NCBI GenBank assembly: GCA_964016885.1
Contig: OZ024760.1
Span: forward strand, 5,952,001-6,016,000
DNA length: 64,000 nucleotides
Source of the DNA: Eledone cirrhosa
Taxonomy: Eukaryota
Direction of reading: 5' to 3'
Positions 975 through 59,779 of this stretch are shown one piece after another. Made by a program: the position numbers and the translations under genes. Numbering within the stretch: position 1 is the stretch's first letter; every line of letters starts with the position of its first letter. The notes beneath the pieces were generated by a model. The model saw only the letters and a program-made list of their open reading frames with translations, was not told the DNA's origin and did no database searches.

Positions 975-1360
975 GAAAGCAACATATGGGATTCCTCCGA
1001 GGGGTTTTTGGAGTAACGTTACTCGATAAAGTGCGTAGCTCGGAGATCATTGAGTCACTCCAGGTAGAGCCCCCACTACTCAGAATTGAGAGATCACAGC
1101 TCCGATACTATGGGCCTGTGGTTAGAATGTCTCAGGAAAGAATCGCTGCATAGATTTTACAGGCAAAACCAACAGGTAGGAGACCCAAGAGTAAACCCCG
1201 AACAAGATGATTACATAACAACTATGAGCTTGGCTGGTCACGCCTGAGGATCGATCTGGATTTATTGGAGACCGTTGCTTCTGACAGGACCCGCTGGAGG
1301 GAATGTTTGAGGACTCTGCCCCCATGACCCTCTCAGTAATAAGTGGGCAAAGAAGAGAAC
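975..1360 (+). mobile_element. RTE-clade LINE 3' fragment
   Basis: Translation GFLRGVFGVTLLDKVRSSEIIESLQVEPPLLRIERSQLRYYGPVVRM resembles the RTE ORF C-terminus. Related fragments at about 8555-8650 (-), 24930-25010, 51240-51360 and 51850-52250. Confidence 0.7.
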
Positions 1361-1575
1361 ATACGATTTAGGGGCGATTTTTAACTGTAAGTTCAATCGT
1401 GTCAAAGCTCCCCGTGTAAAGACAATACATCTCTCTATATATACATAATGAATTAAAAGACAATATATATATATATACACACACATACAATGAATGAAAC
1501 GACATGTGGTGTAACTAGGGAGAAAAAGAAACGTGGAATTACGTCTGCTCAGATAAAATAAAAATATATATTTAC

Positions 1576-1672
1576 CAGGATGCCATTTCAGAGCTAACTT
1601 TCTGTAAGATTTCTTTAATTCTTCGTCTCCGACATCGAAAGGAACTCCAAGTACTTCGTAATGACATTTCAT
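1576..1672 (-). CDS. DNAJC21: DnaJ homolog subfamily C member 21, coding exon 1 (rest of gene lies left of the window)
   Basis: [33 protein letters not shown]|gtaaat. This is a J-domain N-terminus closely matching DNAJC21 ([17 protein letters not shown]), with a phase-1 donor splitting the HPD Asp codon; 97 bp. Confidence 0.88.
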
Positions 1673-2289
1673 GGTAAAATAGTTAAGAAGTTACCAAAAA
1701 ATAATGTTCCGTCTTCTAACATACAAATAAATATTGCAACACAATTTCATAAGATTGACAGGAAGTTCCTTTTTTAAACTTCCGGTGGAAATGTTGATGG
1801 ACAAAGCCGACGGAACGAAATATTTGTTATCGTATTATTTCTGTATAATTTAATAACTCAACCAATGTTTGTTAGTTTATTGCGATAAATTGTTTGTTGT
1901 TTTTTTTTATTATTTAATTAAATAATAAAATCCCCTTTATGTATGTATTATTATTATATGTTATATGCTATATGTCGTTATTGTTATTGTTTTAACTAAT
2001 CCAGGTCAACCCCGATCGATCTAGCTTACCATCAAAAACATTCCAGCATTTTTTTAAGAGTAACCAAGACTACATTATTTAATGTATCCTTCTCATTTTT
2101 AAGATGATCGGGTGTGAGTTAGAGGACATTTGAATGCATTTTTTTCATCAAATGGAGCCAACACTTAGAGAGAGGCTGTTTTCGTTACTGCCTCTCTATT
2201 TCTCACTTTCCTGCTTTGAAAAAACAACAACAACAAAACCAAGGCGAATCTAATAACCCAATCCGCATTTTGTATTAACCAAAAGAAAG
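1673..2289. promoter_or_regulatory. Putative bidirectional promoter between DNAJC21 and MED17
   Basis: Divergent start codons are 617 bp apart. ETS/GABP-type motifs ACAGGAAGT (1758-1766) and ACTTCCGGT (1778-1786) are in opposite orientation. A YY1-like AAGATGGCG overlaps the MED17 ATG. Confidence 0.6.
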
Positions 2290-4155
2290 ATGGCGACCGG
2301 CGAGGTTTCAGTAAGTGTCGAGTCAGTTATCGAACAACAAATCCAAGAAGTTTCCTTTGATGGCCAGGAATTATGTTTACCGCCGCTTTCTATGTCAGAA
2401 AATCTTACCAAGCTCGCACACAAGATCGATTTCTACCGCGATGAAAGTGAAGAAAAGGGTAAACCAACATCGGAAGGGGCGAAGGAAACAGACGAGAAAG
2501 TATTAGCGCCATTCCAACCATCTCTGTGGCCATGGGATTCCGTCAGAAACAAACTGAAGATCGCATTAACCGAGATAAGTGTTCTTAATGATGTTGTTAA
2601 TATTGCAAAAGAAAGACGTTATATGATTCTCGATCACGTAGTTGGTGAATCAAACGAGTCCCGTGTTGCTGTACAGCTTTTAGCTAAAAAACGAAGTTTG
2701 GTATCGGCCGCAGCTGTTTTGGCCGAGGGAACGGAACGTTTGAAGAAATCTCAACAAGAGACTAGTGCAAGGACTCAATCCGACTTCCACATAGAACTCT
2801 TAAAACTGCGACATAATTGGCGACTAAAAAAAGTTGGAAATACGATCCTCGGAGATTTCAGTTATAAATCTGTTGGTTCCAGATATTGGCAGAGTGGAAC
2901 TTTCGAGGTTGTTAAAAGCACGAAAGAGATGGACAGCATGGATTCTATATCTGGTACACCGAAAAGCTGTCTAGAAGTGATCATTCCTAGTGAGTTAGAA
3001 GGTGTAGCTTACGTTAAAATTGAAGTGAAAACTTTCCCGGAATTATCAGACCTGACAAGCGTAGCTCTGAAAATGCCAAGTGGATTATGTCCCGTTCCTT
3101 CAGATACGTATTGGCACCAGAAATTGGAAGTTGCTCAGAATGTTTTGTTTTGTAAAGAATTGTTTTCGCAGTTGGCCCGAGAAGCTGTCCAGTTGAAATC
3201 GCAGGTACCACACATGGTTGTCGGTAATCAAATCATTACAAATATTTTCCCTGGTGTCCAGCTGTCCATTGTACTGTGTCATTATAACGATAAGGACAAG
3301 CGGGTCACGTCTTTGAAAGTTGACCACAACCACGTTCTTGAACACTCTCTCCACCAGCTTCTTCGAGAAGCCCACTACAAAACAATCAACCACCCACCTC
3401 CGCACCCGGTCACCGTCACGCTGGGTCTGAGCAAGAGGCGGCGGCTGGCCGGTCCCCACGGTTACAGCCGGCAGGACCTGACGGAAATGACGGAGAACGA
3501 AACCCTGTTGGAACAGATCATACAGCAGACGAAACACGCCGTGCTTCGCAAGCGTGTGATGGAAACGGTGGACAGGATGGCCATCCACGTACCCGACCCA
3601 CAGATCTCTACCCACTGGAGCTGCCTAAATAGCAGTCTGGAATCTAGTGTGAAGATAAACATCACCTCTCTTGGATATGAGATAAACAGGACTTCACTGG
3701 TGCTAGAAATTGGCACGGACACTATCAAAGCTATCAGTAGGGATGGCAGAGTTAGTATATTGTCGTTCGAACCTAAAGAACTTGAAGATCTGCTCATGTG
3801 GCAGATCGCTTTCCATCATTTAGCCATAATTGTGTTCCTGAGTAAGTTAATGGGGTGGCAGATTCTGTCGAGTAGTAACTGTGTTGGAGTTGGGCAGATG
3901 GAGCCTCTGGGCACGGCCTCTTCTATTACGTTGGGGTCACCGAAAGGAGACAAACTGGTTTGTATTCGGAGTGGAGCAGCTACTGGTCAGCATGTGTACA
4001 TTCAATCATTACCACACTCTTATGACAGTTCTGTCGTGACCGACCCAAAATGGAAAAACCTTGAGGGTTCCTTCCAGGAGGTTAACCTCGATAAATTAGT
4101 CGGTCGAAGTTTTATTATCAAAATTGAATTCTTAATGGCTACACTGATGTCATAA
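2290..4155 (+). CDS. MED17: Mediator of RNA polymerase II transcription subunit 17 (single coding exon, 621 aa)
   Basis: Uninterrupted ORF with Med17 motifs: VSVES..EQQIQEVSFDGQE, PLSMSENLTKLAHKIDF, WPWDSVRNKLK.ALTE, LRHNWRLKKVG..ILGD.SY.S.GS, LE.AQNVLFCKELF.QLAREA, HVLEHSLHQLLRE. Confidence 0.95.
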   Translation: MATGEVSVSVESVIEQQIQEVSFDGQELCLPPLSMSENLTKLAHKIDFYRDESEEKGKPTSEGAKETDEKVLAPFQPSLWPWDSVRNKLKIALTEISVLNDVVNIAKERRYMILDHVVGESNESRVAVQLLAKKRSLVSAAAVLAEGTERLKKSQQETSARTQSDFHIELLKLRHNWRLKKVGNTILGDFSYKSVGSRYWQSGTFEVVKSTKEMDSMDSISGTPKSCLEVIIPSELEGVAYVKIEVKTFPELSDLTSVALKMPSGLCPVPSDTYWHQKLEVAQNVLFCKELFSQLAREAVQLKSQVPHMVVGNQIITNIFPGVQLSIVLCHYNDKDKRVTSLKVDHNHVLEHSLHQLLREAHYKTINHPPPHPVTVTLGLSKRRRLAGPHGYSRQDLTEMTENETLLEQIIQQTKHAVLRKRVMETVDRMAIHVPDPQISTHWSCLNSSLESSVKINITSLGYEINRTSLVLEIGTDTIKAISRDGRVSILSFEPKELEDLLMWQIAFHHLAIIVFLSKLMGWQILSSSNCVGVGQMEPLGTASSITLGSPKGDKLVCIRSGAATGQHVYIQSLPHSYDSSVVTDPKWKNLEGSFQEVNLDKLVGRSFIIKIEFLMATLMS

Positions 4156-4801: not shown

Positions 4802-5589
4802 GTGTGTATTTATATATAAAACGTCTGGGACTCGTACATTTTCTATAGACTTCATAACTACCCAGCACATAGTTCGATACTTTGCATATATATATATACA
4901 CACACACATGTGTGTGTTTGTGTTTATGTATGTATATATGTATGTGTCTGTATATATATATATGTGTGTTTGTATGTGTCTCTCTCTGTATATATATATT
5001 TACATACATATATATGTAGATGTATATATATATATGCCTGTGTATGTATGTATATATATATGTGTGTGTGTGTTTGTGTTTATGTATGTATATATATATG
5101 TGTATGTGTCTGTATATATATATGTGTGTGTTTGTGTGAGTCTCTCTCTCTGTATATATATATATATATTTACATATATATATATGTGTGCCTGTGTATG
5201 TATATATATATATATATGTGTGTGTGTACATTTATATATGTCTCTGTTTATATATGTGTGTGTCTATATGTGTATATATAGTTTATTAAGGTTGATCCAA
5301 TGACCTGTCATTCTGGAGCATCCTCTGTGTGTCATCAGGCTACTAGTTCAAACTTAAAGTATTATTCGCTATGCAGTTGAGTTCTCATTCTCATATTCAT
5401 CAGTACTAAATATATATAAATGAAAAGTAGGGGTCAGCATCAAGAAGGGCATCCAGCTATAGAAATTTGCTGTGAATAAAGCAGGGCTTTAATACATAGA
5501 TACACACATACATACATTTGCTGTCCAGCCCATGCAAGCATGTAAAAACAGACATAAAACATTGATGATAATGATGATGATAATATATA

Positions 5590-5892
5590 TTATCATTTTA
5601 CATCCGCTTTTCCCTGCTTGCATGGGTGGGACGGGAACTGATTCTGGCTTGATTTCTACAGCTGGATGCCCTTCCTAACACCAACCTCATTTACAGTGAG
5701 TGCTGGGTGCTTTTTTGCAGTGGAATGGTAGGGATCCCAGTCCTATCATCTCATTTCTACAGCTGAGTAAACTGGAGCAATGTGAAATAAAGTGTCTTGC
5801 TCAAGGAAACAACACATCACCCGGTCTGAGAATTGAACTCACAACCTTTTGGTTGCAAGGCCAATGCTCTAACCACTAAGCCATGTGCCTCC
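5590..5892 (-). mobile_element. tRNA-derived SINE, family B (~300-340 bp, (ATG)n tail)
   Basis: Minus-strand head GGAGGCACATGGCTTAGTGGTTAGAGC (A box)...GAGTTCAATTCTC (B box), then CCTTGAGCAAGACACTT. Near-identical copies at 16626-16960, 31271-31611 and 46243-46520; partial copies at about 36840-37110 and 63140-63490. Confidence 0.85.
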
Positions 5893-8395: not shown

Positions 8396-8839
8396 GTTAC
8401 ATATATATATATATGTATGTAAAAGGTAAACAGGAATAACAACACAATCGGTACAGTATAGGGAAGGGATATGGTATATAAAAAGAATCACCCAATTTCA
8501 AATGGTTTGGTATTAAAAATGTTAAAATGTCTCAGTGAAGAATTTTTTCTTGTTCCCACATTTATTCCTGAAAGTATCATGTGGATAGAGTTCTCAGAGG
8601 GTCCTGTCAGAAGCAACCAAATTCTTCAGACCTGTGGAGTACAGGATTATCTCTCTAGTGAATGATTAAGAAATTTGACACAAGTTTGGTAAGTTCATTT
8701 TAGTGTTAGAATCTGAAGATACCTGGATAAACATTAACACAACACACTGAGAGAAATGGTACAAACAGGATGCAGGGGAAGTAATTTGGTTTTGTTTAGG
8801 TGTCTTCTTACAAACAGAAGGGGGAATAATAAGTGGTTT

Positions 8840-11116: not shown

Positions 11117-12756
11117 TATATATATATGAACTGATAAGTTTACAAAAAAAAAAAAAGAAAAGAAATTCGGGCAAGTCAGAAATTTATTTGTTTTTATTAG
11201 TAAAATCTGCCAGAATTCTTATATAAACTATAAAATAGTGGACTAAGTCAGGTAAATATCTGTTTGAAAATGGACAGAGACACCACTAACAGTTATCGCA
11301 GCCGTCTGCCATACAGCAGATTTATGGTTAATAACTACAAGCTTTTCTCATTTTGGCGCCGCAACAAAAAGCGCCCAGTCCACAATGTAAAGTGGTCATT
11401 TGGGAGACATGACTAAAAGCACCCAGTCCACACTGTAAAGTCGTCATGGAGATACCACAACAAAAAGCACCCAACCCCCACTGGAAATGTGGTCATGTAG
11501 GTCTCATGACAAAAAGCACCCAGTACACATTGTAAATGTGGTCATGTAGGGGTCTCATGACAAAAAGCACCCAGTACACACTGTAAATGTGGTCATGTAA
11601 GTTTCATTACAAAAAGCACCCAGTACACAGTGTAAATGTGGTTGGCATTAGGAAGGTCATCCTGCTGTAGAAACCAAGCCAAAATCAGTTTTGTATGAAC
11701 AAGACATGGTCATCTGACCTAGCTTGTCTCACAATGAGACGTCAAGCCCATGCTAGTGTGGAAAAATGGACATTAAATGATGATGATGATGATTCAACAT
11801 GACAACTGTGTGTGACAAAGCTGACCCTTTGAATTACAGGTACAACTAAGGAAAAAATTATTTCATTTTTATTAATTTAAAGTCTGTCCCATGGCTCATC
11901 AAGCTAGTTGTTATCTAGGTTTCTTTGGTGTGAAGCAACTGAGTGTACAAGACTTCCGCCAGGACATGACGCCAGTCCATGGCAGGGTTAGATCCCAGTT
12001 AATGCTTATACACATTTTCAGCTGAGTGTACTAGAGCAACGTGAAATGAATTACTTTGCAACAGAAACCTGTATCAAATGTTGCTTAACTTATGTATTAA
12101 ACAGAATAAAGTAAATTGAGCTAGTGTTGAACATCCTGAACCACTAAAAATCTGTATCAAATATAGTTTAACTCATATTAAACTGAGTGAAGAAAATTGG
12201 GCCATTGTGTCAAATACAGTTTAACTCATGTATTAAATTGAGTTAGTGTTGAACATACTGAGCCATTAAAGACCTGTATCAAACACAGTTTAACTCATAT
12301 TTTAAACTGGGACATTGTGTAATGTCTTGAGCTATCAAAGACCGGTATCAAATGGAAATGAGGGCCAACGTCATGAATTCAGATAACCCAGGTAGGTGGT
12401 GATGTATCTGTAATTGAATGTTTTGATCAAGAAGACACAATGTGCCATCCAGTCTGAGGATTGGACCCACTACCTCATGATCATGAGACCAACACCCTAA
12501 CCACGATGCCATGTGCCTTGACTAGACATAGAAGAGAAAATAATGATAATGGTTTCTAATTTAGGCACAAGGATAGCAATTTATGGAAAGGGAAAGTCAA
12601 TTATATTGAACCCAAAACTCTTCACTGGTACTTTATGGAAGGGACATAGGCAGAGTTGGCTTTGGCAGGATTTGAACTAAGGACACAAAAAGTAATAACT
12701 CGATGCCGCAAGATATTTTGTCCAACACCCTGCCAATACTGCCAATACTGCCCTAG

Positions 12757-13148
12757 AGATGATTATGGGTTCTGATTTAGACACAAGGCCAGCAATTACC
12801 CAGTGCATTATAATAATGGGTTCTGATTTAGACACAAGGCCAGCAATTACCCAGTGCATTATAATAATGGGTTCTGATTTAGACACAAGGCCAGCAATTA
12901 CCCAGTGCATTATAATAATGGGTTCTGATTTAGACACAAGGCCAGCAATTACCCAGTGCATTATAATAATGGGTTCTGATTTAGACACAAGGCCAGCAAT
13001 TACCCAGTGCATTATAATAATGGGTTCTGATTTAGACACAAGGCCAGCAATTACCCAGTGCATTATAATAATGGGTTCTGATTTAGACACAAGGCCAGCA
13101 ATTACCCAGTGCATTATAATAATGGGTTCTGATTTAGACACAAGGCCA
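12757..13148. repeat. Perfect 51-bp minisatellite (~7.5 copies) amplified from a SINE family A tail
   Basis: Unit ATTATAATAATGGGTTCTGATTTAGACACAAGGCCAGCAATTACCCAGTGC, embedded in a head-to-tail SINE cluster (about 12550-13960). Confidence 0.9.
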
Positions 13149-14174
13149 TTAATTTGAAGGGCAGGGGAAAGTCGATTAAATCGACCCCAGTGTGTTACTG
13201 CTACTGTATATTATTGACCCCATAAGGATGAAAGGAAAAGCTAAACTCAGCAGGATTTGAACTCAGAACGTAAAGGGCTGTAACTCTATGCTATGAAGCA
13301 GGGCGTCCAACGCTCTACCGATTACAGCCAATCCACCGCCTAGAGAAAATAATAATAATAATAATTGTTTCTACATTTGGCACAAGACCAGAAATTTGAT
13401 GGGGAGGAATTCGATTAAATCAACCCCAGAGTATTACTGGTACTTTATTTTATCGATTCCCACTCAGAAGGATGAAAGGTAAAGTTAACTTTGGCAGGAT
13501 TTGAACTCAGAACATAAAGGGATGTAACTATATGCTGCAAAGCATGTTGTCCGACGCTCTACCTATTACTGCTAATCTACCACCCTTATAATAATAATAA
13601 TTGTTCCTACTATAGGCACAAGGCCAGTAATTTTGGGGAGAGGGGAAAGTCAATTAAATCGACCCCAGTGCATTACTGGTACTTTATTTTATCGACCCCG
13701 TAAGGATGAAAGGCAAAGTTAACCTTGGCGGGATTTGAACCCAGAATGTAAAGGGATGTAACTATATGCTGCAAAGCATGTTGTCCGATGCTCTACCGAT
13801 TACTGCCAATCCACCATTCTAATAATAATGATAATAATAATAATAATTGTTTCTACTTTTGGCACAAGGCCAGCAATTACCCCAGTGTATTACTGGTACT
13901 TTATTTTATCGACCCCGTAAGGATGAAAGGCAAAGTTGACCTCGGCGGGATTTGAACTCAAAATGGAAAGGACCGTATAATAATAATTAAGACAAGAAAC
14001 AGAAGAGCAAAAGAAAAAAATAATCATATCCAGAGTAAAACCCCTTCCCAAGTTTTTCTTCCCCCTTCTCACCCTGCCCCTTCATTAAAAAAAGAGATAG
14101 TTCCTTTATGTCTTTGGAATATTTAGTTATTTCGTTCTTTTCATTTTTTTTAATGTGTGTGTGTTCTTTTTTTT

Positions 14175-17145
14175 TCAAACAAACCTCCTCTTACGTTTAT
14201 TGGGAGCTCCCTCCGATCCAGGAGTTTGTCCCTGTCGAGTACGTTTCCGTTTGTTACTTTCAGTAGTGGTAGTTGATGAAGAGAGGCTGGAGGCCAGTGA
14301 AGTTGAAGAGGAAGAGGAGGAGGAGTAACAAGTGCTACCAGAGTTGCTTGTATTCGATAAAGAACTGGAAATGTCTTTAAGCTGAATTTTCTGCAAACCT
14401 GTTCGGAAGAGAGAGAGAGAAAATAAAAGATAAGAAAACTGAAGAATATAAGTCTTAACAACCACAGTAGTCTCCAACCTTTTTTATAGCATGGACCGGC
14501 TTCATGCCGGACAATCTTTGTGCGGACTGATAGTTGCACATGTGTGTTATTTAAGTGCATTTCGATAAAGAGAGCAATTATTAAAGGGAAGAAAAAGTGT
14601 ATTGGGTATAATGAATATTGAATATTTAAACAAATCATTTAAATTAAAGTCCAATATTCAATTTATCTATTATATAATTTTAAACAAGTTAATTATTTCT
14701 TTGCAGCCCAGTAGCAAATGATGGTTGGGGACCTCTGCTGTACCACATGAAACCACATTAACAAGACTTTCTTGAAAAATACAAAACAACACTTTGCATC
14801 ACATGAAAAGTTAAAGTTTTTGCCTTAGTTTACTGCAGATTTTCACAACAATCTGTCCAACAGTAAAGGTTACTATAAACATTTATAATAACAAACCACA
14901 TGAAACCATATTAGCAATACATTCTTGTAAAATACTAAACAGAATTATGACTGAAAAATTAAAGTCTTTATTTTAATGCTGCAAATTTTAACAATCATCT
15001 GTCTACTGGTTAAAACTCTATAAACATTTGAATTAACACATGTTTTTTTATATCTTCTGCAGAATCTTTACAGAGTAAGAGTTAAAGGCTATACTTTAGT
15101 TTACTGCAAAATCCACTAGTAAAGATCCTCTAAACATTTGAATTAACACATGTTTTTTTATATCTTCTGCAGAATCTTTACAGAGTAAGAGTTAAAGGCT
15201 ATACTTTAGCAAAATGACACAATCTATCCACTAGTAAAGATACTCTAAACATTTGAATTAACAAACCCATTTTTAGATATTTTCAGTTTAATCGTAAAAG
15301 GATGAGATAATATTGCAAATTTTCACAACAAACTGTTCACTAATAAAGAGATTGTATGTATGTACAGTCCTGTATCAGGGGGCTGTAGATACACCATATT
15401 AACATAGTGTTTCTAGGGTATTTTTAAAACCTGGTGGAGCCCATCTCTTCTCCTGGTCAGAATACAGCAGATTTCTTCCAAAGAAGGACAGCGAGTGAGA
15501 ATGGAAATGAGAAAGGTATATAGAGGAAGAATCGACCCCAGTACTAGACTGGTACTTTTTTTATCAACCATGAAAGGATGAAATGCAAATTTGACTTCAG
15601 CGGAATTTAAACTTAGAGAGCAGGAATGAATACTGCAAAGCATTCTATGTGACGTTCTAACGACTGAATTCGCCACTTTAGACCGATGGGTGAAGAAATG
15701 CCAGTGGAAAGCTGCAATAGAGGATGACCAAGACCTGGGCAGAGGTTGTGAGAGTGGACCTCAAATCGCTAAGACTAACAGAGAAGATGAGGAAGGAACA
15801 CGACGAGTGGAGAGAAACTGTGCTGAGAAGGACCCGTCCAACCCATGCAAACATGGAAAAGCAGACATAAAAAAACGATAATGATGATGAAATCAGTTTT
15901 TAGATATTTCCTGCTAAATTATAAGTGTATGTTAAATGTCATACCTTTATCTTCGGTCTTTATGTCAGCTGAGCTTAATAATTTACTCGTTTCATTTGCG
16001 CTACTCTCATCCAGAGAGTTAAAAGCATCGGGTTTGTAACGAGGAAATTCTCCAGACAGAAGGCTGCCGTATTCACTGCCGTTCAATTCAAAATCACAGA
16101 TACGATTAGGGAAAGGAAATATTTCGGACTCGTTCTGAAAAAAAAAAATGAAAATATGGTTTTTGAGTATACAAGCAACATGTAATCACCTAACTGATCA
16201 ATCTAACCTCAGAAGGTGACAGCCCAGCTATTTTCTATGATTGCATGGAAAATAGATGTTAAACAGTGATGATGAGATGGAGCATATATATATATATAAT
16301 ATAAGATCAAAAGATGGTTAAAAGAGTTCCAAGTATTTTATTATGCGCATTTCAAAAACAAATATCATCATGAGATGATATCTGCGTTTTCATCAGATAA
16401 AATAGGGATACATGATATGAAGGTTAAAAAACACTTGTGAATAGTGAAGTTTTAAATCAACATTTGTTTTGAAATGCGCATAATAAAATACTTGGGACTC
16501 TTTTAACCATCTTTTGATCTTATATTATTTATACTCCAGTCCTACAAACTGTAGAGTGCTACTTATCCGATATCTGCATTGCTTTATTGTACTACAATAA
16601 AACTCACCTCCTACATATATATATATCATCATCATCATTTTACGTCCGCTTTTCCCTGCTTGCAAGGGTGGGACGGGAACAGACTCTGGCTTGATTTTTA
16701 CAGTTGGATGCCCTTCCTAACACCAACCTCATTTACAGTGAGTGCTGGGTGCTTTTTTGCCATGGCACCTCCACGACCACTTTGCAGTGGAATGATAGGG
16801 ACCTCAGTCCCTATCATCTCATTTCTACAGCTGAGTAAACTGGAGCAATGTGAAATAAAGTGTCTTGCTCAAGGAAACAACACATCACCCAGTCTGAGAA
16901 TTGAGCTCACAACCTTTCGATTGCAAGGCCAATGCTCTAACCACTAAGCCATGTGCCTCCATTATATAATATAATAAAGTCTTACCAAAGCCATGAGATC
17001 ATACATTTCTCCCAAATGTTTCCAAACATCACTAATAGGAATCTTCTTGCTTGAAGCATTGTTCAATTTTTCATGAATACAAATCATCTGGAAGAACCGA
17101 TTTACTCCTGAAATATCAAACATATATATTATTAGGAGTATATAT

Positions 17146-21228: not shown

Positions 21229-21949
21229 GTTGTCTTGTGTTGTTGATTAGAATAATGAGAGAAGGAGGAGGAGAGATATAAAAAGAGAAAGGGGGGGACG
21301 GAGAAAAGGAGAAAGAAAGAGTCAGAAATATATATAGAGGAGAAGAGAAAGAGAAGGGGAAAGAGATAAATAGAGAGGAGAGAGAAAGAGAAAGGGAGAG
21401 AGACGGAGCGAGAGAAGGAGAAAGAAAACGGGAGATATATACAGAGATACCTACAGAGGGGGAAACGAAAGAGAGAGCAGAGATTTACAGAGAGGGAAAG
21501 GAGGTGAAGTGATAAAGAGAGAGTCAAAGACACACAGAGAATGAAAGAAGGGAAACAAGCTTAAGAGCGGGGTGGGGGGAGAAAGTGAGATATATAGAAA
21601 GACAGAAAGAAAGGAGGGGGTAACGAGAGAGAGGGGATACGAAAGACAGAGAGAGAGAGGATGCGAAAGACAGAGAGAGAGAAGGAAAGGAAGGGAAGTG
21701 AAAGAGAGAGAGGGGGTGGCACAGACACACAAGGAGGAAAGAAGGAGAAAAAAAAAAGAGGAGAGAGTCAAAGACACACAGACAAGAAAAGAAGAGAGAA
21801 AAGCGAGAGATCCGTAGTGGGAGAAAGTGAGAGAACAAGAGAGGAAGGTGAAGGGGAAATCGGCCAGCAACACACGTTGCATCAGCCACTTACACATCAG
21901 TGGAGCCCAATCCTTAAGCGGAATGCACTCCTCCCGATTTTTGCGGTTT

Positions 21950-22355
21950 CAAAACGTGGACGCTGACCAAGAGACTCACTCAGATGGTGGATGGGTGCTA
22001 CACGAGAATGCTGAGGATGACTCTGAACATTAATCAGTATGCACTGAGGATGAAGAACTCAAAGCTGTTACGGGAGCCTCCCCAAAGTCAGTTCGAAAGT
22101 CACACAGAGGAGACTGAGGTTAGCTGAACATGCTCACCGACATCCAGAGTTGACACTGCTCTTAGTGGTCCTGTGGAAACTCATACACAGATACACTGGT
22201 AGAGGGAGACCGAGGACAACATATGTTGATGTCCTAAAGACAGACACTGGTCTCTGGGAGACGTGGGACATAGCGGCAATGATGCAGGACAGAGGCCGCT
22301 GGAGAGAACTCGTCCATGGATCTTGGGAATTTTACCCGCCCTACATACATACATG
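21950..22355 (+). mobile_element. LINE reverse-transcriptase C-terminal fragment with (ACAT)n tail
   Basis: Frameshifted DGCYTRMLRM..LYGSLPKVS..RRLRLAEH..RHPE..GRGRPRTTYVDVL..DRGRWRELV. Confidence 0.75.
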
Positions 22356-22359
22356 CCAC

Positions 22360-23647
22360 CTGATCAGGATTTCCTTAGGATTTTTGAGCAATTCCTTGCT
22401 GTTTTGGGAGTGAAGTGGTGACATTTGTGGACTGGTTGGACCATACACCTCCCTGAGCAGATCATATAAGAGCTTTGTATCATGTCTATCTGAGGCATTC
22501 TGGATTTCATCAGCCTTCTTTCTCCACTATGTATCTTGCATGGCTCCCAAGTGATGTTGCACACGTGCCTTGAGTTGCTTGAATGTCTCGTCACTCTTGT
22601 CAGAACATGTCTCACACAACAATGATGACCGCACTTTTTGTTACTCTTCAAGCAAGGTCTGGATCTCTGTATCATTTTCACCGAACCAGTCCTTATTTTT
22701 TCTAATGGTATGACCTAAAACTCCAGCGCTGACATCATAGACGGTTTTGTTCAATGATTCCCATGTGTTTTCACATTCCATGGACTCAAGAGACTTCGAC
22801 AGCTCAGCTCTGACTTCTTCTGTCTTCAGACGAACCACATTTAGTTGTTTTAGAAATGCAACCTTCTTCCCCCTAACTTTGGGCTTCACAACAAATTGAA
22901 ACTTGGCGTGCACCAGATGATGGTCAGTCCAACATTCCACAATACACGAACCAATGTGATATCCCAGACATCACGTTTTCTCGCTAAAACAATGTTCGTA
23001 AGGTGCCACTTCTTGGAAGTTGTCTTATATTTGTCTTTCTGCTGAAAGAGTGTGTTCCCAACAAGATCCATTTCAGCACACATCTGCAACAGAAGTAGGC
23101 CATTGTTATTGCACTTTCCCATTCCATGTTTGCCCATCACACTCCAAGCTTCCCAGTCATTACCAGCACGTGTATTAAAATCTCTAAGGATGACAATCTT
23201 GTCTGCATAAGGTATAATATGAAAGACCTCTTTCAAAGGCACGTAGAAAGCTAGTTTTTCATCATCACTAGCGCACATGGTAGGAGCGTACACACTGACC
23301 AGAGCCACACAGCGGTTTTGAATCAGGGGGATTCTCATGGACATTATCCAATCATTGAATCCATAGGGAAGATTTTCCAGCTTTCAGACGATTCCATTCC
23401 TGACAGCAAATGCGACCCCTGCCTCTCTCTTACAACCCTCTGCTCTACCACTCTAATAGAAGGTATATCCTCCCTCCATGAATTGACCCTCACCTATTAA
23501 TCTTGTTTCTGAAAGTGCAACGATATCCATGTTATAGCGATTGAGTTCCCTCAACACCAAAGCAGATCTTCTTTCAGGGCGAGTTTCACTGTATTGGGAA
23601 TCAAGTAAAGTTCTTACATTCCAGCACTCAATATCAAAATTTGACAA
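22360..23647 (-). mobile_element. Decayed RTE-clade LINE 5' portion (APE endonuclease)
   Basis: Broken ORFs WNVRTLLD..RPERRSALVLRELNRYNMDIVALSETRL, SVYAPT, DFNTRAG, NGLLLLQMC, CWTDHHLV, KDWFGEND, with several frameshifts. Confidence 0.85.
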
Positions 23648-23999
23648 TTATGTATATTGGTTCCCTTTGAAGTAGAATTTATAAAAGTTACACAACTTGG
23701 CTGTGTATTTTAAGAATGTATGATTATGATTTCTTGAATGTGGCCTTATTATATTACAAGTAACTTAATGTGACCTTTCAGCTTGAAAAGTTTCCCCACC
23801 TCTGGTTTAGCAGAACAGGTCAGATCTAGAGGACTAAGCCTCGATAAAAATCCTGCTTGTTTCATAGCAAACATTAGTTCATGTGGCGACCATCACTTTA
23901 TGATCTCCAGTTAGTAGAGAAATCTATGAATATGCAATGTGGCAAGCCACGTATTCTAGCCATTAAAAAAGGCAATACCTTCGATGATGATCATCATCA

Positions 24000-25573: not shown

Positions 25574-26639
25574 CACACCAACTCTTTGGTATAGCTTCAT
25601 AGCTGATATATACATACATACACATATATATATACACACATATATACATACACATACATATATAAATATATATGTATGTATATATACAGATAAACACACA
25701 CACACATATATGTATATCATAATTATTCACAGTAAGTTGTAAAGAGGACAATATGGTGCCATGTTACTCATGGCAACATATTTTAATATTTTAGACATTT
25801 TACTTTTCTTTTCTTTCTTTTATTATTATTATTAATCATTTTATTTTTTTTACCAAATTCCATTTTTCCTAACTTATTCCACACAGCACACACAAATCTG
25901 AATCTGATGGTTGGTAGGGTTATCAATTCTTTCTTCAGGTGTAACAAAAATCTTTAGGTGAGAATGAAGACTGGAGTTTTAATGATGGAAGTATGGAAAT
26001 AAATGATTTATGGCCAGGTGTAACGAGTGAAAAAAAAAAACAAAAAAATAATAACAATAAGCCATAAACTTATGAAATATTTACAGCAGGACTTAAAAAA
26101 AGATAAGGGAAAAAAAAAAAAAAAAAAGCATGAGTTAGAATATAGATTTTGGTTTACTGATGAAACGAAAGGGAATTGAAGGCGCCATCTATGCCTTTTT
26201 TTTTTTTTTACAAGGAACTGAACTATTATTAAAGCTATTCTTTTGCGTTATAAAACAACTGTGGTTTCTAGCCTGGTGGTCTGTAAAGGTGGTGCTTAGA
26301 GTTTGTGAACTAAGTTTAAATACACACTCCATAGGGTATCTGTTCTTCTCTGTCTGAGGAGGGAGCCCTATGAGGTTGGGTGGCTGGCCATCGTCCGGGA
26401 GAATGCTTTAGCCATCTTGTCCGCAAGGCCCAAAGTCGAATCATCCCCACCCCCTCTCTTCCACGACACCAGACCTCTTGCCATCCCCTCCCTTTCGCAT
26501 TCTTTTTCTTCTTTCTTTCTCTATATTTCCCTATTCTTTCTTTCCCTTTGTCCCCCCCCCCCCACCTTTTTAAAAAAATTTATTCTTACTAAATAAGGTT
26601 TGTTTTTTAGGCTTTTGAAAAAATAAAAATAAAAACATA

Positions 26640-27335
26640 TAGTTTGTGTATATATAATGGTTATAGTTAGAGAAGAATATATACCCAATAATGTGTATAT
26701 ATAATGGTTATAGTTAGAGAAGAATATATACCCAATAATGTGTATATATAATGGTTATAGTTAGAGAAGAACAGATACCCAATAGGGTGTATATATTATG
26801 TTTATATTTAGAGAAGAACAGATACCCAATAGGGTGTATATATTATGTTTATATTTAAAGAACAGATACCCAATAGGGTGTATATATTATGTTTATATTT
26901 AGAGAAGAACAGATACCCAATAGGGTGTATATATTATGTTTATATTTAGAGAAGAACAGATACCCAATAGGGTGTATATATTATGTTTATATTTAGAGAA
27001 GAACAGATACCCAATAGGGTGTATATATTATGTTTATATTTAGAGAAGAACAGATACCCAATAGGGTGTATATATTATGTTTATATTTAGAGAAGAACAG
27101 ATACCCAATAGGGTGTATATATTATGTTTATATTTAGAGAAGAATATATACCCAATAGGGTGTATATATTATGTTTATATTTAGAGAAGAATATATACCC
27201 AATAGGGTGTATATATTATGTTTATATTTAGAGAAGAATATATACCCAATAGGGTGTATATATTATGTTTATATTTAGAGAAGAATATATACCCAATAGG
27301 GTGTATATATTGTTTATATTTAGAGAAGAAACGAT
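26640..27335. repeat. 47-bp minisatellite (~14 copies)
   Basis: Unit AGAGAAGAACAGATACCCAATAGGGTGTATATATTATGTTTATATTT (for example 26901 and 26948). Confidence 0.9.
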
Positions 27336-27594
27336 ACTCAATAATGTATCTGTTCTTCTCTAAATATAAACATTTCTCTCTTACAATAGATATTCTAACT
27401 GTATAACAATTTTAAGTACTGTTCTAAACTTAATATACATACACTATTGGGTGTATATTCTTCTCTAACTATAAACATAATATACACACTATTGGGTATA
27501 TATTCTTCTCTAACTATAAAGATAGTTATTCTCACTGTATAACAATGAATCCAGGTGGGGAATAATTTAGCTGGGGGTACACAGTGAAATTAAT

Positions 27595-28612
27595 ATTTAT
27601 GTGTTACACAGGCCACATTATATATATTTATGTGTTACACAGATCATCTTACATATATTTGTGTTACACAGGCCACCTTATATATATATTTATGTGTTAC
27701 ACAGATCATCTTACATATATTTGTGTTACACAGATCACCTTACATATATATATGTGTTACACAGATCACCTTACATATATATATGTGTTACACAGGCCAC
27801 CTTACATATATTTATGTGTTACACAGATCACCTTACATATATATATGTGTTACACAGGCCACCTTATATATATTTATGTGTTACACAGGTCACCTTACAC
27901 ATTATATATATTTATGTGTGTGTTACACAGGTCATCTTACATATATTTATATGTTACACAGATCATCTTACATATATTTGTGTGTTACACAGGCCACCTT
28001 ATATATATTTGTGTGTTACACAGGCCACCTTATATATATATTTGTGTTACACAGGCCACCTTATATATATTTGTGTGTTACACAGGTCACCTTATATATA
28101 TGTGTTACACAGATCACCTTACATATATTTGTGTTACACAGGCCACCTTATATATATTTATATGTGTTACACAGATCATCTTACATATATTTGTGTGTTA
28201 CACAGGCCACCTTATATATATTTATATGTGTTACACAGGCCACCTTACATATATTTGTGTGTTACACAGATCATCTTACATATATTTGTGTGTGTTACAC
28301 AGGCCACCTTACATATATTTATATGTGTTACACAGGCCTCCATCATCGTTTAATGTCCATCTTCCATGCTAGCTGTGTTACACAGGTCACCTTACATATA
28401 TTTGTGTGTGTTACACAGGCCTCCATCATCGTTTAATGTCCATCTTCCATGCTAGCTGTGTTACACAGGTCACCTTACATATATTTGTGTGTGTTACACA
28501 GGCCTCCATCATCGTTTAATATCCATCTTCCATGCTAGCTGTGTTACACAGGTCACCTTACATATATTTGTGTGTGTTACACAGGTCACCATACACGTGT
28601 GTTACACAGGCT
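27595..28612. repeat. ~30-34-bp variable minisatellite immediately downstream of the LEO1 stop
   Basis: Core GTGTTACACAG(G/A)(C/T)CA(C/T)CTTA(C/T)ATATAT, roughly 30 copies. Confidence 0.9.
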
Positions 28613-28640: not shown

Positions 28641-50922
<22,282 letters not shown>

Positions 50923-53437: not shown

Positions 53438-54099
53438 CATACACAAACATATATATACATGTATATATATATATATGTATGCTAGTGTGGAAGATGAATG
53501 ATGATATATATATGTATGTATAGGATGATCTCTCTTCCTATCTAATTATCTCCATATCATATCTATTTGAATTTAAACACAGGAAGCTATCATATATTTG
53601 AAAGCTAAGGCGACACCAACTGTGGTAAAAACGAAAACAAGAGAACTAGAGTAGTGACAAAGGAAGTTCTCAGCTTTGAATTAACTTATGAATATATAAC
53701 TACATTTATCTAAAAAAAACCTTCCACCATAATTTTATGTAACACTCTTTGCTATATTTGAAACACTAACTTTAAAATGTGAAATATTAGTTATATTACT
53801 AAGTCCAGCCAAATATTGGATTATTTTCAAAATTAATTGAAAACCATAGGCTGTGTCAAGGGTTAAAACCCTTGAGAGACCTCCATTATAGAATAAGGCT
53901 GGGCTGAAGAGTTCATAGGCTGACTACGAAAGACTGATGCTAGAGCTGTGAAATAAACCTCATTTAGTCATTCCATGAGAGTGTCTTGGTCAACTTATGA
54001 ATGTTTCAGCTCACTCTCATATACATATGTGTGTGTCTGTCTGTATGTATGTATGTACTCTTATTAATCACTGCATTGCTTTTTTTCCACAGACTGTTG

Positions 54100-55100
54100 A
54101 AAAATAAACCTCATTTGATCATTTCATGAGAGAATCTTGGTCATAGGCTGACTATGAAGGAGTGATGCTAGAGCATACATAATTTCAACTCTTCTTCAAT
54201 AACTACATTGTTTCTTTCCAGGGACTATGTTGAAAAAATAAGCCTCATTTGATCATTTCATGAGAGAATCTTGGTCATAGGCTGACTATGAAGGAGTGAT
54301 GCTAGAGCATACATAATTTCAACTCTTCTTCAATAACTACATTGTTTCTTTCCAGGGACTATGTTGAAAAAATAAGCCTCATTTGATCATTTCATGAGAG
54401 AATCTTGGTCATAGGCTGACTATGAAGGAGTGATGCTAGAGCATACATAATTTCAACTCTTCTTCAATAACTACATTGTTTCTTTCCAGGGACTATGTTG
54501 AAAAAATAAGCCTCATTTGGTCATTTCATGAGAGAATCTTGGTCATAGGCTGACTATGAAGGAGTGATGCTAGAGCATACATAATTTCAACTCTTCTTCA
54601 ATAACTACATTGTTTCTTTCCAGGGACTATGTTGAAAAAATAAGCCTCATTTGATCATTTCATGAGAGAATCTTGGTCATAGGCTGACTATGAAGGAGTG
54701 ATGCTAGAGCATACATAATTTCAACTCTTCTTCAATAACTACATTGTTTCTTTCCAGGGACTATGTTGAAAAAATAAGCCTCATTTGATCATTTCATGAG
54801 AGAATCTTGGTCATAGGCTGACTATGAAGGAGTGATGCTAGAGCATACATAATTTCAACTCTTCTTCAATAACTACATTGTTTCTTTCCAGGGACTATGT
54901 TGAAAAAATAAGCCTCATTTGATCATTTCATGAGAGAATCTTGGTCATAGGCTGACTATGAAGGAGTGATGCTAGAGCATACATAATTTCAACTCTTCTT
55001 CAATAACTACATTGTTTCTTTCCAGGGACTATGTTGAAAAAATAAGCCTCATTTGGTCATTTCACGAGAGAATCTCAGTCAGCCTATGGTCTTTTCAGCT
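54100..55100. repeat. 134-bp satellite (~7 near-identical copies) amplified from a mariner-like MITE interior
   Basis: GGTCATAGGCTGACT recurs at 54139, 54273, 54407 and onward. The sequence matches the interior of the element at 6228-6370. Confidence 0.88.
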
Positions 55101-55269
55101 GACCCTTGTAGGCCACCTCAACATACAAAGGTGTGAGCTGTAACAACTACAACACATGAGCTATGGTCAAAGCTATGAAGATACTTGGCCTAGTGGGAAG
55201 AATGTCAGATTCATAACCATAAGATTGTGAGTTTGAGCAAGGCACTTCATTTCACGTTGCTCTTCATCA

Positions 55270-56950
55270 TAGGACTAGGCCCACTATTATTAAAACACAT
55301 GGGAAACATCTTATGAGATACAACCTTGCTGGAGGCCAATTAAACCTGCAGATAGGTATGAACTATGACAACAAAATACACATGTCTGTGTATCATTAAA
55401 ACACCTGAGAAACCACCTATGAGCTACAACTTTGTTAGAGGCCAGTTAAACCAGCATATAAGTGTGAGCTGTGACAACATTTATATGTATGTCTGTGTTG
55501 ATGGGACTGTGGCTCCTATCATTAAAACACATGAGAGAGAGCTCCTATGAAATACAATTTCATAGGAAGCCAGCTAAATCTGCATATAGGTGTGAGCTGT
55601 GACAACAACATACATCTGTATATATATAGGTTTGGGGCCTCTGCCATTAAAACATCTGAGAAACCTCTTATGAGATACAACCCTATAGGAGGCCAGCTAA
55701 ACCTGCACATAAGTGTGAGTTGTGACAAATACATCTGTATATGTATGATAGGTTTGGGGCCCCTACCATTAAAACATCTGAGAAACCTCTTATGAGATTA
55801 CAACCCTATAGGAGGCCAGCTAAACCTGCATATAAGTGTGAGTTGTGACAAATACATCTGTATATGTATGATAGGTTTGGGGGCCCTACCATTAAAACAT
55901 CTGAGAAACCTCTTATGAGATACAACCCTATAGGAGGCCAGCTAAACCTGCATATAAGTGTGAGTTGTGACAAATACATCTGTATATGTATGATAGGTTT
56001 GGGGGCCCTACCATTAAAACATCTGAGAAACCTCTTATGAGATACAACCCTATAGGAGGCCAGCTAAACCTGCATATAGGTGTGAGTTGTGACAAATACA
56101 TCTGTATATGTATGATAGGTTTGGGGCCCCCTACCATTAAAACATCTGAGAAACCTCTTATGAGATTACAACCCTATAGGAGGCCAGCTAAACCTGCATA
56201 TAGGTGTGAGTTGTGACAACAACATACATCTGTATATATATAGGTTTGGGGCCTCTGCCATTAAAACATCTGAGAAACCTCTTATGAGATACAACCCTAT
56301 AGGAGGCCAGCTAAACCTGCATATAAGTGTGAGTTGTGACAAATACATCTGTATATGTATGATAGGTTTGGGGCCCCTACCATTAAAACATCTGAGAAAC
56401 CTCTTATGAGATTACAACCCTATAGGAGGCTAGCTAAATCTACATATAGGTGTGAGTTGTGACAAATACATCTGTATATGTATGATAGATTTGGGGCCCC
56501 TACCATTAAAACATCTGAGAAACCTCTTATGAGATACAACCCTATAGGAGGCCAGCTAAACCTGCATATAAGTTTGAGTTGTGACAAATACATCTGTATA
56601 TGTATGATAGGTTTGGGGGCCTCTACCATTAAAACATGAGAAACATCTTATGAGATTACAACCCTATAGGAGGCCAGCTAAACCTGCATATAAGTGTGAG
56701 TTGTGACAAATACATCTGTATATGTATGATAGGTTTGGGGGCCCTACCATTAAAACATCTGAGAAACCTCTTATGAGATACAACCCTATAGGAGGCCAGC
56801 TAAACCTGCATATAAGTGTGAGTTGTGACAAATACATCTGTATATGTATGATAGGTTTGGGGGCCCTACCATTAAAACATCTGAGAAATCTCTTATGAGA
56901 TTACAACCCTATAGGAGGCTAGCTAAATCTACATATAGGTGTGAGTTATA
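55270..56950. repeat. ~122-bp satellite (~13 copies)
   Basis: Unit ATTAAAACATCTGAGAAACCTCTTATGAGATACAACCCTATAGGAGGCCAGCTAAACCTGC...GGTTTGGGGCCCCTACC, more diverged at the left edge. Confidence 0.9.
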
Positions 56951-57849
56951 AATTTCATTTTTTTTTTTTCATTTCACGAGCAAAAAAAAAAAAAAATATA
57001 TAAAAAAACTGGGTCTATTACATGGAAAAATTGCCGATTGCTGATCTAGTTTTACATTATCTTAGTAACATACGCCTCTTTCTCCCCTTATTTCAGTCCA
57101 TTAAGGTGTGAATCAAGGGAGATTTTTGGCAGGTATTTCTAGCAGCTTGTTGCCAAAGCAATTTAAATAGATTGCTGGTAAACGAGAATGAGATGGGGTA
57201 GGGCTGGATTAAAAATAGTGCTGCAGTTACTTGGAGATGAAATTCAAGTTGGTTGCCAAGAATTTTTTCCTTTTATTTATTTATTTATTATTTTATTTTT
57301 TGATGTTAAAATGATTAACAACAAAATATTATTTATAAACTCTATCTTTAGTCGGCTTTCATTAACAGCAAAGATGAGATCAGTCGAAGTAAATGGATAT
57401 TTTATGGCACTGAATAAATTATAAAGAAAAAGAAAAGAAAAATAATTTAACTCTTTCGTTAATATATTTCTAATGAAAGACGCTGCCCATGGTTTTATAA
57501 TAATTTTGAATATAATAAAGAATTTAGTGGGATTTAGTAATATAACAAATTTTTTCATTATTAAGCTGGTGTTTGGAACATAATTTAACAAAGGTTCTTA
57601 CATAAAATTTAGTAGATAAATATAAACACTTTAACCCTTTAGCATTTAAACCAGCCATATCCGGCCAGAAATCTCTCACCTCTTTGTGTTCAAACTGGCT
57701 GTAACCAATTGCTCATACTTATGTTAAGGTATTGTTCTCAAAATAAAATCAAAATCCCATAGATTTGATATTAGGTGAGGTAAAGTGTTTATCATGAAAA
57801 TACATTAGTATATATATAGAGTAACGTAACTGCTAAAGGGTTAACCCTT

Positions 57850-58870
57850 TTAGTCCTCCTACCATCTCCTTACTCACTACCACCAGGACAGAGCTGACCA
57901 CCTGGTGCTTGTTCTTGGTCCTCCTACCATCTCCATATTCACTACCACCAGGACAGAGCTGACCACTGGGGTTCTTAGTCCTCCTACCATCTCCATATTC
58001 ACTACTACAAGGAGAGAGCTGACCACCAGGTGGTCTTAGTCTTCCTACCACCTCCTTACTCACTACCACCAGGACAGAGCTGACCACCAGGTTGTCTTAG
58101 TCCTCCTACCACCTCCTTACTCACTAACCACCAGGACAGAGCTGACCACCTGGTGGTCTCAATCTGCCTACCACCTCCTTACTCACTACCACCAGGACAG
58201 AGCTGACCACCTGGTGGTCTCAATCTGCCTACCACCTCCTTACTCACTAACCACCAGGACAGAGCTGACCACCTGGTGGTCTTAGTCTTCCTACCACCTC
58301 CTTACTCACTACCACCAGGACAGAGCTGACCACCAGGTGGTCTTAGTCTTCCTACCACCTCCTTACTCACTACCACCAGGACAGAGCTGACCACCTGGTG
58401 GTCTTAGTCTTCCTACCACCTCCTTACTCACTAACCACCAGGACAGAGCTGACCACCAGGTTGTCTTAGTCTTCCTACCACCTCCTTACTCACTACCACC
58501 AGGACAGAGCTGACCACCTGGTGGTCTTAGTCTTCCTACCACCTCCTTACTCACTAACCACCAGGACAGAGCTGACCACCTGGTGGTCTTAGTCTTCCTA
58601 CCACCTCCTTACTCACTACCACCAGGACAGAGCTGACCACCTGGTGGTCTTAGTCTTCCTACCACCTCCTTACTCACTACCATCAGGACAGAGCTGACCA
58701 CCAGGTTGTCTTAGTCCTCCTACCACCTCCTCACTCACTACCACCAGGACAGAGCTGACCACCAGGTGGTCTTAGTCCTCCTACCACCAGGACAGAGCTG
58801 ACCACCTGGTGGTCTTAGTCCTTGTACTACCATCTCCATATTCACTGTTATCAGGACAGAGCTGACCACC
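57850..58870. repeat. 61-bp minisatellite (~16 copies)
   Basis: Unit CTTAGTCTTCCTACCACCTCCTTACTCACTACCACCAGGACAGAGCTGACCACC(A/T)GGTGGT (58281, 58342). Confidence 0.9.
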
Positions 58871-59779
58871 CAGCATAAATGAGCCCTGATAGTTGGAACA
58901 CCTATTTTTTTTCTTCTCAATGCGCCTCTCTTTTATTCTCCAGGGTACCGCCTTCTCCATCCTGTCTACTGGGACCAGGATGCAGCACTTGCCTGGGGTT
59001 CTACACACCAGACAGCATGCTCCCACACTACCCAGGCTTCTTCTACCAACTGGAGGGTAGCGATGATTGCGTATTCTTTTTCAATTTCCAGACAAAGAGA
59101 CCAAATATTTTACAACCTCTTAGAATCTGTAACTTCAATGTTGTTGTTGTTGTTGCTGCTGTTGCTGTAGTTGTTGTTACAGTTCACACCTGAGTAGGTT
59201 TAGTTGGCTTCCTATGGGATTACATGTTTTAATGATGTAAGTACCCATCCTCCCCTACCCCACAGTCCTATCATGCTACTACTTAGCCCCATCCCACCCC
59301 GGTCAAACATCAGCAGCCGGATACAGAATCAGAAAACGCAAGAGGTTGAAAATAATAAACACAGCAAGGCATTTTGTCTCTGACACTCTACCGATTCTGC
59401 CAATCTAGATTGGAATGATTCTACATAATCAGTTTTTTGGCAGTTTTTTTTTAGTGCTATTCTAGGCAGGTGGCCCACTAGCAAATGATAACCGCGCAGA
59501 AGAAGGCTTAAAGTTTTGGGACAAATCTGAAGAGAAATATTTCGGTGTCACAGATCAAGGGAAGAAGATAAAGAGAAAGATAAGGTTGTTCTACAAACTC
59601 ATACAGATCATGTCAGCACCAACCACACACACAAGTGTTTTAAGGGCAACCCACCACCACCAACACCACTAAAGCAAGGGTCAGCATTGCAAGCTCCATG
59701 ATGTAAAGGCAATGCTATACAGCAGCAAAAGTAATGCTATACAGACAGATGCACTTCCTGGCGCCAAGTCACCTCTTGA

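Follow-up and report, generated by a model that had tools for sequence, protein, structure and literature searches.

A hammerhead ribozyme motif with an antisense arm in an MRGBP intron of Eledone cirrhosa is most likely a Penelope-type stump insertion

The second intron of an MRGBP/Eaf7-family gene of Eledone cirrhosa contains a hammerhead motif next to a stretch that is antisense to part of it. The locus raises the question of whether the host carries a self-cleaving ribozyme with its own off-switch, or whether motif and antisense stretch were both left there by the ordinary insertion of a mobile element. The original prediction, made from the sequence alone, proposed a (TA)n-targeting ribozyme element that moves as a unit and whose arm silences cleavage in the host pre-mRNA until A-to-I editing or a helicase opens the duplex. 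We followed it up in the window, i.e. the whole stretch of 64,000 nucleotides analysed here (contig OZ024760.1, positions 5,952,001 to 6,016,000 of the forward strand), to which all coordinates refer (Table 1). We find that the motif and its computed masking are real and that the origin is most likely ordinary, a Penelope-type stump, while a host switch is unlikely.

Table 1. Positions of the cassette (copy 1), its parts, its host intron and its relatives in the window
Feature	Positions	Strand	Remarks
Direct piece, pLTR-like, 167 nt	16297..16463	-	5' end at 16459-16463 common to the family
Long arm	16462..16527	+	ribozyme-side part of the inverted, 5'-truncated second copy; antisense in the pre-mRNA
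One-sided tail, ~88 nt	16528..16615	+	continues the element 3' end; inverted copy only
Left boundary, (TA)n-rich	16285..16303	.	no distinguishable target duplication
Right boundary, (TA)n + (CAT)n	16616..16640	.	simple-repeat tail of the neighbouring SINE-like repeat
Type I hammerhead motif	16334..16404	-	core CUGAUGA 16396-16390 and GAAA 16353-16350; predicted cut 16342/16341
MRGBP/Eaf7-family intron 2, 851 nt	16135..16985	-	GT..AG ends; exon 3 starts at 16134
SINE-like interspersed repeat	16630..16953	-	separate from the element; copies 31278-31604 and 46243-46521 at 95-96% identity
Second family copy (copy 2)	30367..30638	-	same direct start and tail; arm ~18-20 nt; C3 30466, H17 30412

The host intron was correctly placed by the original prediction. 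Exon 2 (17106-16986) matches the Pfam family Eaf7 (E 3e-9; the PDB support is weak, E 0.12), the intron has canonical ends, and the ribozyme lies in sense, about 160 nt from the acceptor. The cassette sits within the simple repeat that forms the tail of an unrelated SINE-like element. This SINE-like element presumably has a tRNA-like head, and ARAGORN identified no tRNA in it. It belongs to a young family, including 5589-5885, whose copies are 88-96% identical, and each of the two host introns, that of MRGBP and that of LEO1 described below, has one such copy upstream of its hammerhead element. In organism B, the contig match is limited to 16082-16146 and is followed by unlike sequence, and no piece spans the MRGBP locus. 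Elsewhere in the window, a single frame of 632 codons (2257-4152, plus strand) matches Med17 (E 4e-5) and a frame at 1265-1690 (minus strand) has a DnaJ domain (E 2e-9). The broken frames at about 21900-23650 (minus strand), which have no Pfam match at E 0.001, are what we take to be a LINE endonuclease region. Minisatellite arrays occupy 53966-61520, 26579-28345 and 12708-13205, with units of 31-134 nt, none of which matches the hammerhead descriptor.

The cassette consists of a direct piece and of an inverted copy that is truncated at its 5' end, faces the direct piece head to head and has a tail on one side only. Its arm is almost perfectly complementary to 16297-16363, as predicted, apart from a single internal mismatch and an indel of 1 nt, and the hairpin formed by the arm and its target folds far better than expected (z = -14.5). 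Arm and direct piece meet at a joint with about 2 nt of common sequence. On the plus strand, the 3' half of the element appears in sense at 16462-16615; 66 nt of it recur in the direct piece, and about 88 nt occur nowhere else in the cassette. The 3' end of the direct piece runs into (TA)n without any tail, whereas the tail of the inverted copy ends at (TA)n with an AC-rich stretch and folds no better than shuffled sequences (z -1.1 and -1.7). The (TA)n on both sides of the cassette confirms its location in such a tract, and loose (TA)n ends are found at 16284 and 16616 in public sequencing runs. Both window copies have a (TA)n target (2/2), in line with the predicted targeting. A private change at 16496 could stem from an edited template or from a simple transition. 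The cassette copy shows no coding capacity, also as predicted.

The hammerhead has an 8-bp stem I (16404-16397/16341-16334), a stem II of 16 positions with one C-U mismatch (16389-16374/16369-16354) and the stem III palindrome AUGCGCAU (16350-16343). Cleavage is predicted after A16342, in an AUA triplet; the CUGANGA, GAAA and UH core is present and the motif ends in stem I. Hence, core, stems I and II, palindrome and cut triplet stand as originally described. The claim that the hammerhead is complete does not: the pair of stem II that closes on the core (10.1-11.1) is A-U in both window copies instead of the usual G-C, or G-U with an A>G variant at 16389 seen in public runs, and stem III has only 2-3 bp in a monomer. 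A strict descriptor matched twice in the window (16404-16334 and 30466-30412), against a mean of 0.01 matches in 100 dinucleotide shuffles, none of which had two. A loose descriptor gave four matches, and the 8-bp stem I is present in the same two only; those at 8713 and 28878, with a 4-bp stem I and 1-2 bp in stem II, were rejected as chance. Rfam had no match at gathering score in the whole window, and no hammerhead among the six matches at E up to 10 in 16200-16700, which are hairpin and snoRNA noise. The long stem II may explain why Rfam misses the motif. A search of metagenome contigs with the core pattern returned no match.

The variation of the family is weakly in favour of a conserved ribozyme. 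Among the 40 variants listed of a total of 154, ten fall within the motif: seven in stems, two in loop II and one at N7. The seven listed stem variants all keep a standard pair, and the sole core change affects the free N7 position. Between the two window copies, six of six stem changes keep the pairing and none is in the core. All of these stem changes are one-sided transitions, so the support that they lend to conserved pairing is weak. The short palindromic stem III implies that cleavage likely requires a dimer. Since stem III would need a second ribozyme, the hammerhead of copy 1 is predicted to be nearly inactive even without its arm. Some monomers of retrozymes do cleave well (PMC7229834), and activity of the predicted motif is therefore possible.

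The host of copy 2 is LEO1: an intron of this gene (about 31975-30293) has the copy in sense orientation, 75 nt from its acceptor. The gene was identified by a match at E 9e-17 and by the Pfam family Leo1, and the splice ends were read from the sequence. The two copies were thought to share their ends and their inversion junction. They do agree at the outer ends and where the direct part begins, but not at the junction: 47 nt of the arm are absent from copy 2, whose joint is near 16510 in copy 1 coordinates. Aligned with each other, copies 1 and 2 show 15 differences in the 167 columns of the direct part and 2 in the 104 columns of the tail and short arm, which suggests, in this one alignment, a stronger constraint on the tail than on the part bearing the hammerhead. 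In the interval 30290-31000, several tandem repeats containing the LEO1 acceptor and the initial bases of the exon precede the true acceptor. Each of these repeats has a (TA)n tract, copy 2 lies within one of them, and they are possible decoy splice sites.

Public sequencing data extend this comparison to the family. Of the 21 listed runs, none of which is an RNA run, four were aligned to 16080-16680 at 84% likeness, leaving aside the small-share runs X6-X18. In run X1, the summed depth, which is not a copy number, is 0.4-2.2 million in the direct piece and about 1 million in the tail, compared with 7-21 in the unique flank. The element appears to be a high-copy repeat whose direct piece and tail are about equally common. 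Organism B also has the element (run X5). The alignments revealed 107 joints, of which 15 are listed; each side is 21-41 letters long, and copies identical to copy 1 yield no joint. In nine of these 15, the break on the direct side falls at 16459-16463, and the sequence resumes on the inverted side at 16517, 16521, 16561, 16577 (twice), 16578, 16583, 16584 and 16585. At most 11 nt of arm are kept in these nine, and none reaches the ribozyme. Some joints have depths of up to 203, against 7-21 in the unique flank, and thus some junction forms recur. The joints 16271>16621 and 16275>16625 were considered as empty sites and not counted, since both flanks are repeats (depth rises from 16227). Two others, 16303>16612 and 16304>16613, connect the outer ends with almost nothing between them; they are uncertain because their sides are short, and they are possibly extremely truncated insertions.

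Run X19 consists of reduced-representation data and its depths are rough: for plus mates, 538 at 16447, 6 at 16476, 32 at 16492 and 136 at 16529. Among minus mates, 1272 reads cover 16476, of which 1178 share one variant, and 16473 is the end point of 1140 molecules. The stack looks like an apparent restriction site at one other locus where the 3' half of the ribozyme runs into the tail, and such long continuity is therefore not unique to copy 1. The letter of the arm at 16492 is the rarer one in the family and is the same as that of its direct partner at 16332. The alternative is commoner elsewhere, with 81% of the summed depth in X1 and 632/867 and 562/575 of the reads in X19. At the three sites where the direct parts of the window copies differ, the arm always agrees with copy 1. 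These letters fit two halves made from one template.

Together, these data speak against the idea that the composite moves as a unit, since arm length differs between the window copies and eight different points are used on the inverted side in the public runs. One may still suppose that the long-arm composite formed once and was copied as such, with copy 2 and the public joints resulting from later deletions in the hairpin. Long hairpins are prone to deletion, the outer ends are common to both window copies, the edges of the gap in copy 2 share 3 bases, and 16577-16585 accounts for six of the nine joints (among the 15 listed of 107), some at depths well above single copy. However, deletions should erode both sides, whereas in these nine joints the direct side is fixed within 5 nt and the inverted side spans 68 nt. 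In addition, the rarer letter of the arm matches its own partner and not the family majority, and a tail that is present only in antisense implies that a sense template would not be remade in one piece. We regard this scenario as unlikely.

We put at roughly 80% the probability that the cassette is a stump insertion of the hammerhead-bearing pLTR of a Penelope-like element (PLE) and that the arm is a by-product of this insertion. An inverted truncated copy, a one-sided tail and a bias towards microsatellites have all been described in these elements (PMC8557442, PMC3846280, PMC8969392, PMC2377424). The link to PLEs made in the original prediction gains from the inverted truncated copy, from the palindromic stem III of the hammerhead and from the one-sided extension, although the latter, at about 88 nt, is longer than the reported 30-40 nt. 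On these likenesses, membership of the PLEs is probable, and the hammerhead together with the microsatellite bias suggests that the source is probably of the Neptune type. The expected linkage to a PLE protein was not found: none of the 86 frames searched in the window matches a reverse transcriptase or GIY-YIG family, and a motif scan was also negative. The tail has been reported to extend the first codons of the PLE frame (PMC3846280). Here, the family majority letters in the public runs form an ATG at 16527-16529, lost in copy 1, that opens a frame of 30 codons. This fits the report, yet a frame that long occurs in 23% of shuffles and no relative was found. The only match of the tail peptide (E 3e-4), to a repetitive protein without sign of relation, was rejected.

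The layout, the variable arm length, the fixed start, the (TA)n ends and the presence of the cut site in both halves are observed; from them we infer a PLE protein acting in trans, two internally primed cDNAs and their joining by short homology. Since both halves cross the cut site, the template was uncut. It would be an element RNA of about 255 nt, with its 5' end near 16463, followed by the hammerhead and then the 88-nt tail, to which a PLE reverse transcriptase/GIY-YIG protein encoded elsewhere would bind. This protein would cut the (TA)n tract, and both DNA ends would prime cDNA synthesis within the RNA. The first cDNA would start at the inner site (16297) and reach the 5' end of the RNA, giving a direct piece without tail. 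The second would start at the outer site (16615), copy the tail and stop after a variable distance, and the two would then be joined head to head through 0-4 common bases. In copy 1, the second cDNA would measure about 154 nt and stop inside stem II, covering the 3' half of the ribozyme. Most likely, the arm is the product of a second cDNA synthesis that extended further than usual. Self-priming on an antisense template has been proposed for head-to-head repeats (PMC3846280), a route that would likewise make the arm a by-product.

What does such an arm do to the ribozyme? In the MRGBP pre-mRNA the arm would be transcribed first, and the resulting duplex of about 66 bp would keep the ribozyme permanently off. 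The predicted masking is borne out by computation: the arm costs the ribozyme fold 35.0 kcal/mol, both in copy 1 and in the whole intron. In these computations, arms that reach 16482 or further block the fold by at least 19 kcal/mol, and shorter ones by 4-6.5 kcal/mol. Without its arm, copy 1 still has a computed fold cost of 5.2 kcal/mol and a stem I pair probability of 0.02, because a rival pairing forms. This pairing involves 16428-16437 and 16331-16340, is allowed by the rarer letter at 16332 and outcompetes stem I. The short arm of copy 2 has no computed effect on the fold (3.1 kcal/mol with and without it), so that one of the two sense intronic copies of the window is unmasked. Hence, the idea that the host needs the arm for protection does not agree with the unmasked sense copy in the LEO1 intron. 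We consider copy 1 most likely inert, and at most a double-stranded editing substrate in the intron; A-to-I editing of the duplex itself is plausible.

The masking could nevertheless matter if sense-intron ribozymes were harmful, e.g. by pairing in trans with other copies, and if the self-masked copies were those that are kept. The long arm seems rare in the family and yet is found at this locus in sense within an intron of a conserved gene, and retrozyme-like sequences are depleted from Xenopus introns (10.64898/2026.07.22.740005). Against this filtering, half of the sense intronic copies of the window (1/2) are unmasked, and two copies give no statistics; lone PLE hammerheads are barely active or inactive (PMC4209133), and for the anole element RNA ends at the cut site were not detected (PMC11167929). 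We find the filtering quite improbable. If long arms turned out to be enriched in sense introns, this would mean that the ribozymes cut host transcripts and that hosts select the self-masked copies.

In the switch originally proposed, the arm would prevent ribozyme activity as long as the duplex is not opened by A-to-I editing or a helicase, and cleavage of intron 2 would regulate MRGBP. The geometry permits masking, as the arm is transcribed first and costs the fold 35 kcal/mol, and the core is intact, the change at N7 being the only one in the core among the 40 listed of 154 variants. Opening by editing did not hold up in our model, although only arm adenosines were edited, a choice that favours the switch. 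When every one of the 29 arm adenosines is edited, the modelled block remains at 29.9 kcal/mol if they are treated as G and at 14.7 kcal/mol if treated as unpairable. Changing seven of them leaves more than 26 kcal/mol in every trial, and the modelled probability of stem I is 0.000 throughout. Moreover, 11 adenosines of the ribozyme core and stems (16334-16353) lie inside the same duplex, and editing of core adenosines should disable a hammerhead. Even without the arm, stem I of copy 1 is outcompeted and stem III is a palindrome too weak for a monomer. LEO1 tolerates an unmasked sense copy, and conservation of the core is explained by selection on the element rather than on the host. We give the switch very little credence. 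A still broader view is that the random length of the inverted half decides on self-silencing and that hosts keep or use long-arm copies in sense introns, up to the extreme of helicase-gated cleavage of MRGBP. We hold this, too, to be quite improbable; if true, it would make insertion geometry a source of ribozyme off-switches in genes.

Finally, a monomer of a non-LTR retrozyme (a circular-RNA element) would share the size (near 250-320 nt), the low G+C, the type I hammerhead and the lack of a coding frame (PMC7229834), and a foldback DNA transposon would share the long inverted repeat, but we see next to no chance for either, as the window has two dispersed single copies and no tandem units, neither end coincides with the cut site (about 120 nt downstream of the start of the direct piece), and the repeat is of variable length and not terminal, with 88 nt of tail outside, which does not suit a foldback or miniature inverted-repeat element.

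A stump insertion thus remains our preferred reading, and it adds a hammerhead variant missed by Rfam. In the open-licence literature (titles and abstract starts), neither this element family nor an arm-gated PLE hammerhead in a host intron was found. Several known systems can be compared with it. The CPEB3 ribozyme and the amniote hammerheads, which hosts have kept in introns, are conserved, low-copy loci, unlike the present cassette, which belongs to a high-copy repeat family and has a ribozyme that is probably dimer-dependent. They resemble it in being in sense, intronic and near a splice site (PMC6765202). Non-LTR retrozymes (PMC7229834; 10.64898/2026.07.22.740005) are also small, non-coding, related to PLEs and equipped with a type I hammerhead. 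They differ in forming tandem arrays that are processed from cut site to cut site, whereas we find a dispersed stump, made of a direct and an inverted part, across the cut site.

The hammerheads in the pLTRs of metazoan PLEs (PMC4209133; PMC6765202) are, like ours, of type I, with an intact core, a short palindromic stem III and an enlarged stem II, and they too occur as many dispersed single copies with variable stems. Their stem II has 6-8 bp, versus 16 positions here, stem I has 4-5 bp in the minimal forms, versus 8 bp here, and the pair 10.1-11.1 is a conserved G-C, versus A-U or G-U in this family, which has no Rfam match. A single minimal PLE hammerhead showed no detectable cleavage and dimers had low activity (PMC4209133); cleavage by dimers is reviewed in PMC6765202. 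Dual hammerheads on opposite strands, 100-700 bp apart, have already been noted (PMC4209133), and Naiads are described as lacking canonical hammerheads (PMC8557442).

The Poseidon element PAc of the anole offers a parallel for the insertion itself (PMC11167929). An AT-rich target is cut and extended on both strands with an uncut RNA as template, two internal start sites define the tail, the start region is AC-rich, and no RNA ends at the hammerhead cut site were reported. PAc differs in being autonomous and in having its frame start in stem II, while the candidate start codon here falls where the tail begins. The joining of two cDNAs, which we infer, is not shown in PMC11167929.

Insertions of EN+ PLEs (PMC3846280; PMC8557442, Fig. 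2; PMC2377424, Fig. 1C) likewise have a direct piece and a shorter, head-to-head inverted copy of variable size, an extension at one end, a hammerhead in the repeat and a microsatellite target that hides any duplication. In contrast to them, the cassette has no coding body between its repeats and its parent element was not found, and their tails measure 30-40 nt against about 88 nt here. The cited papers call the step at which the inverted repeat of PLEs originates undefined. With its fixed start, two fixed priming ends and variable inversion point, the present family is suited to testing whether this repeat originates from a second cDNA.
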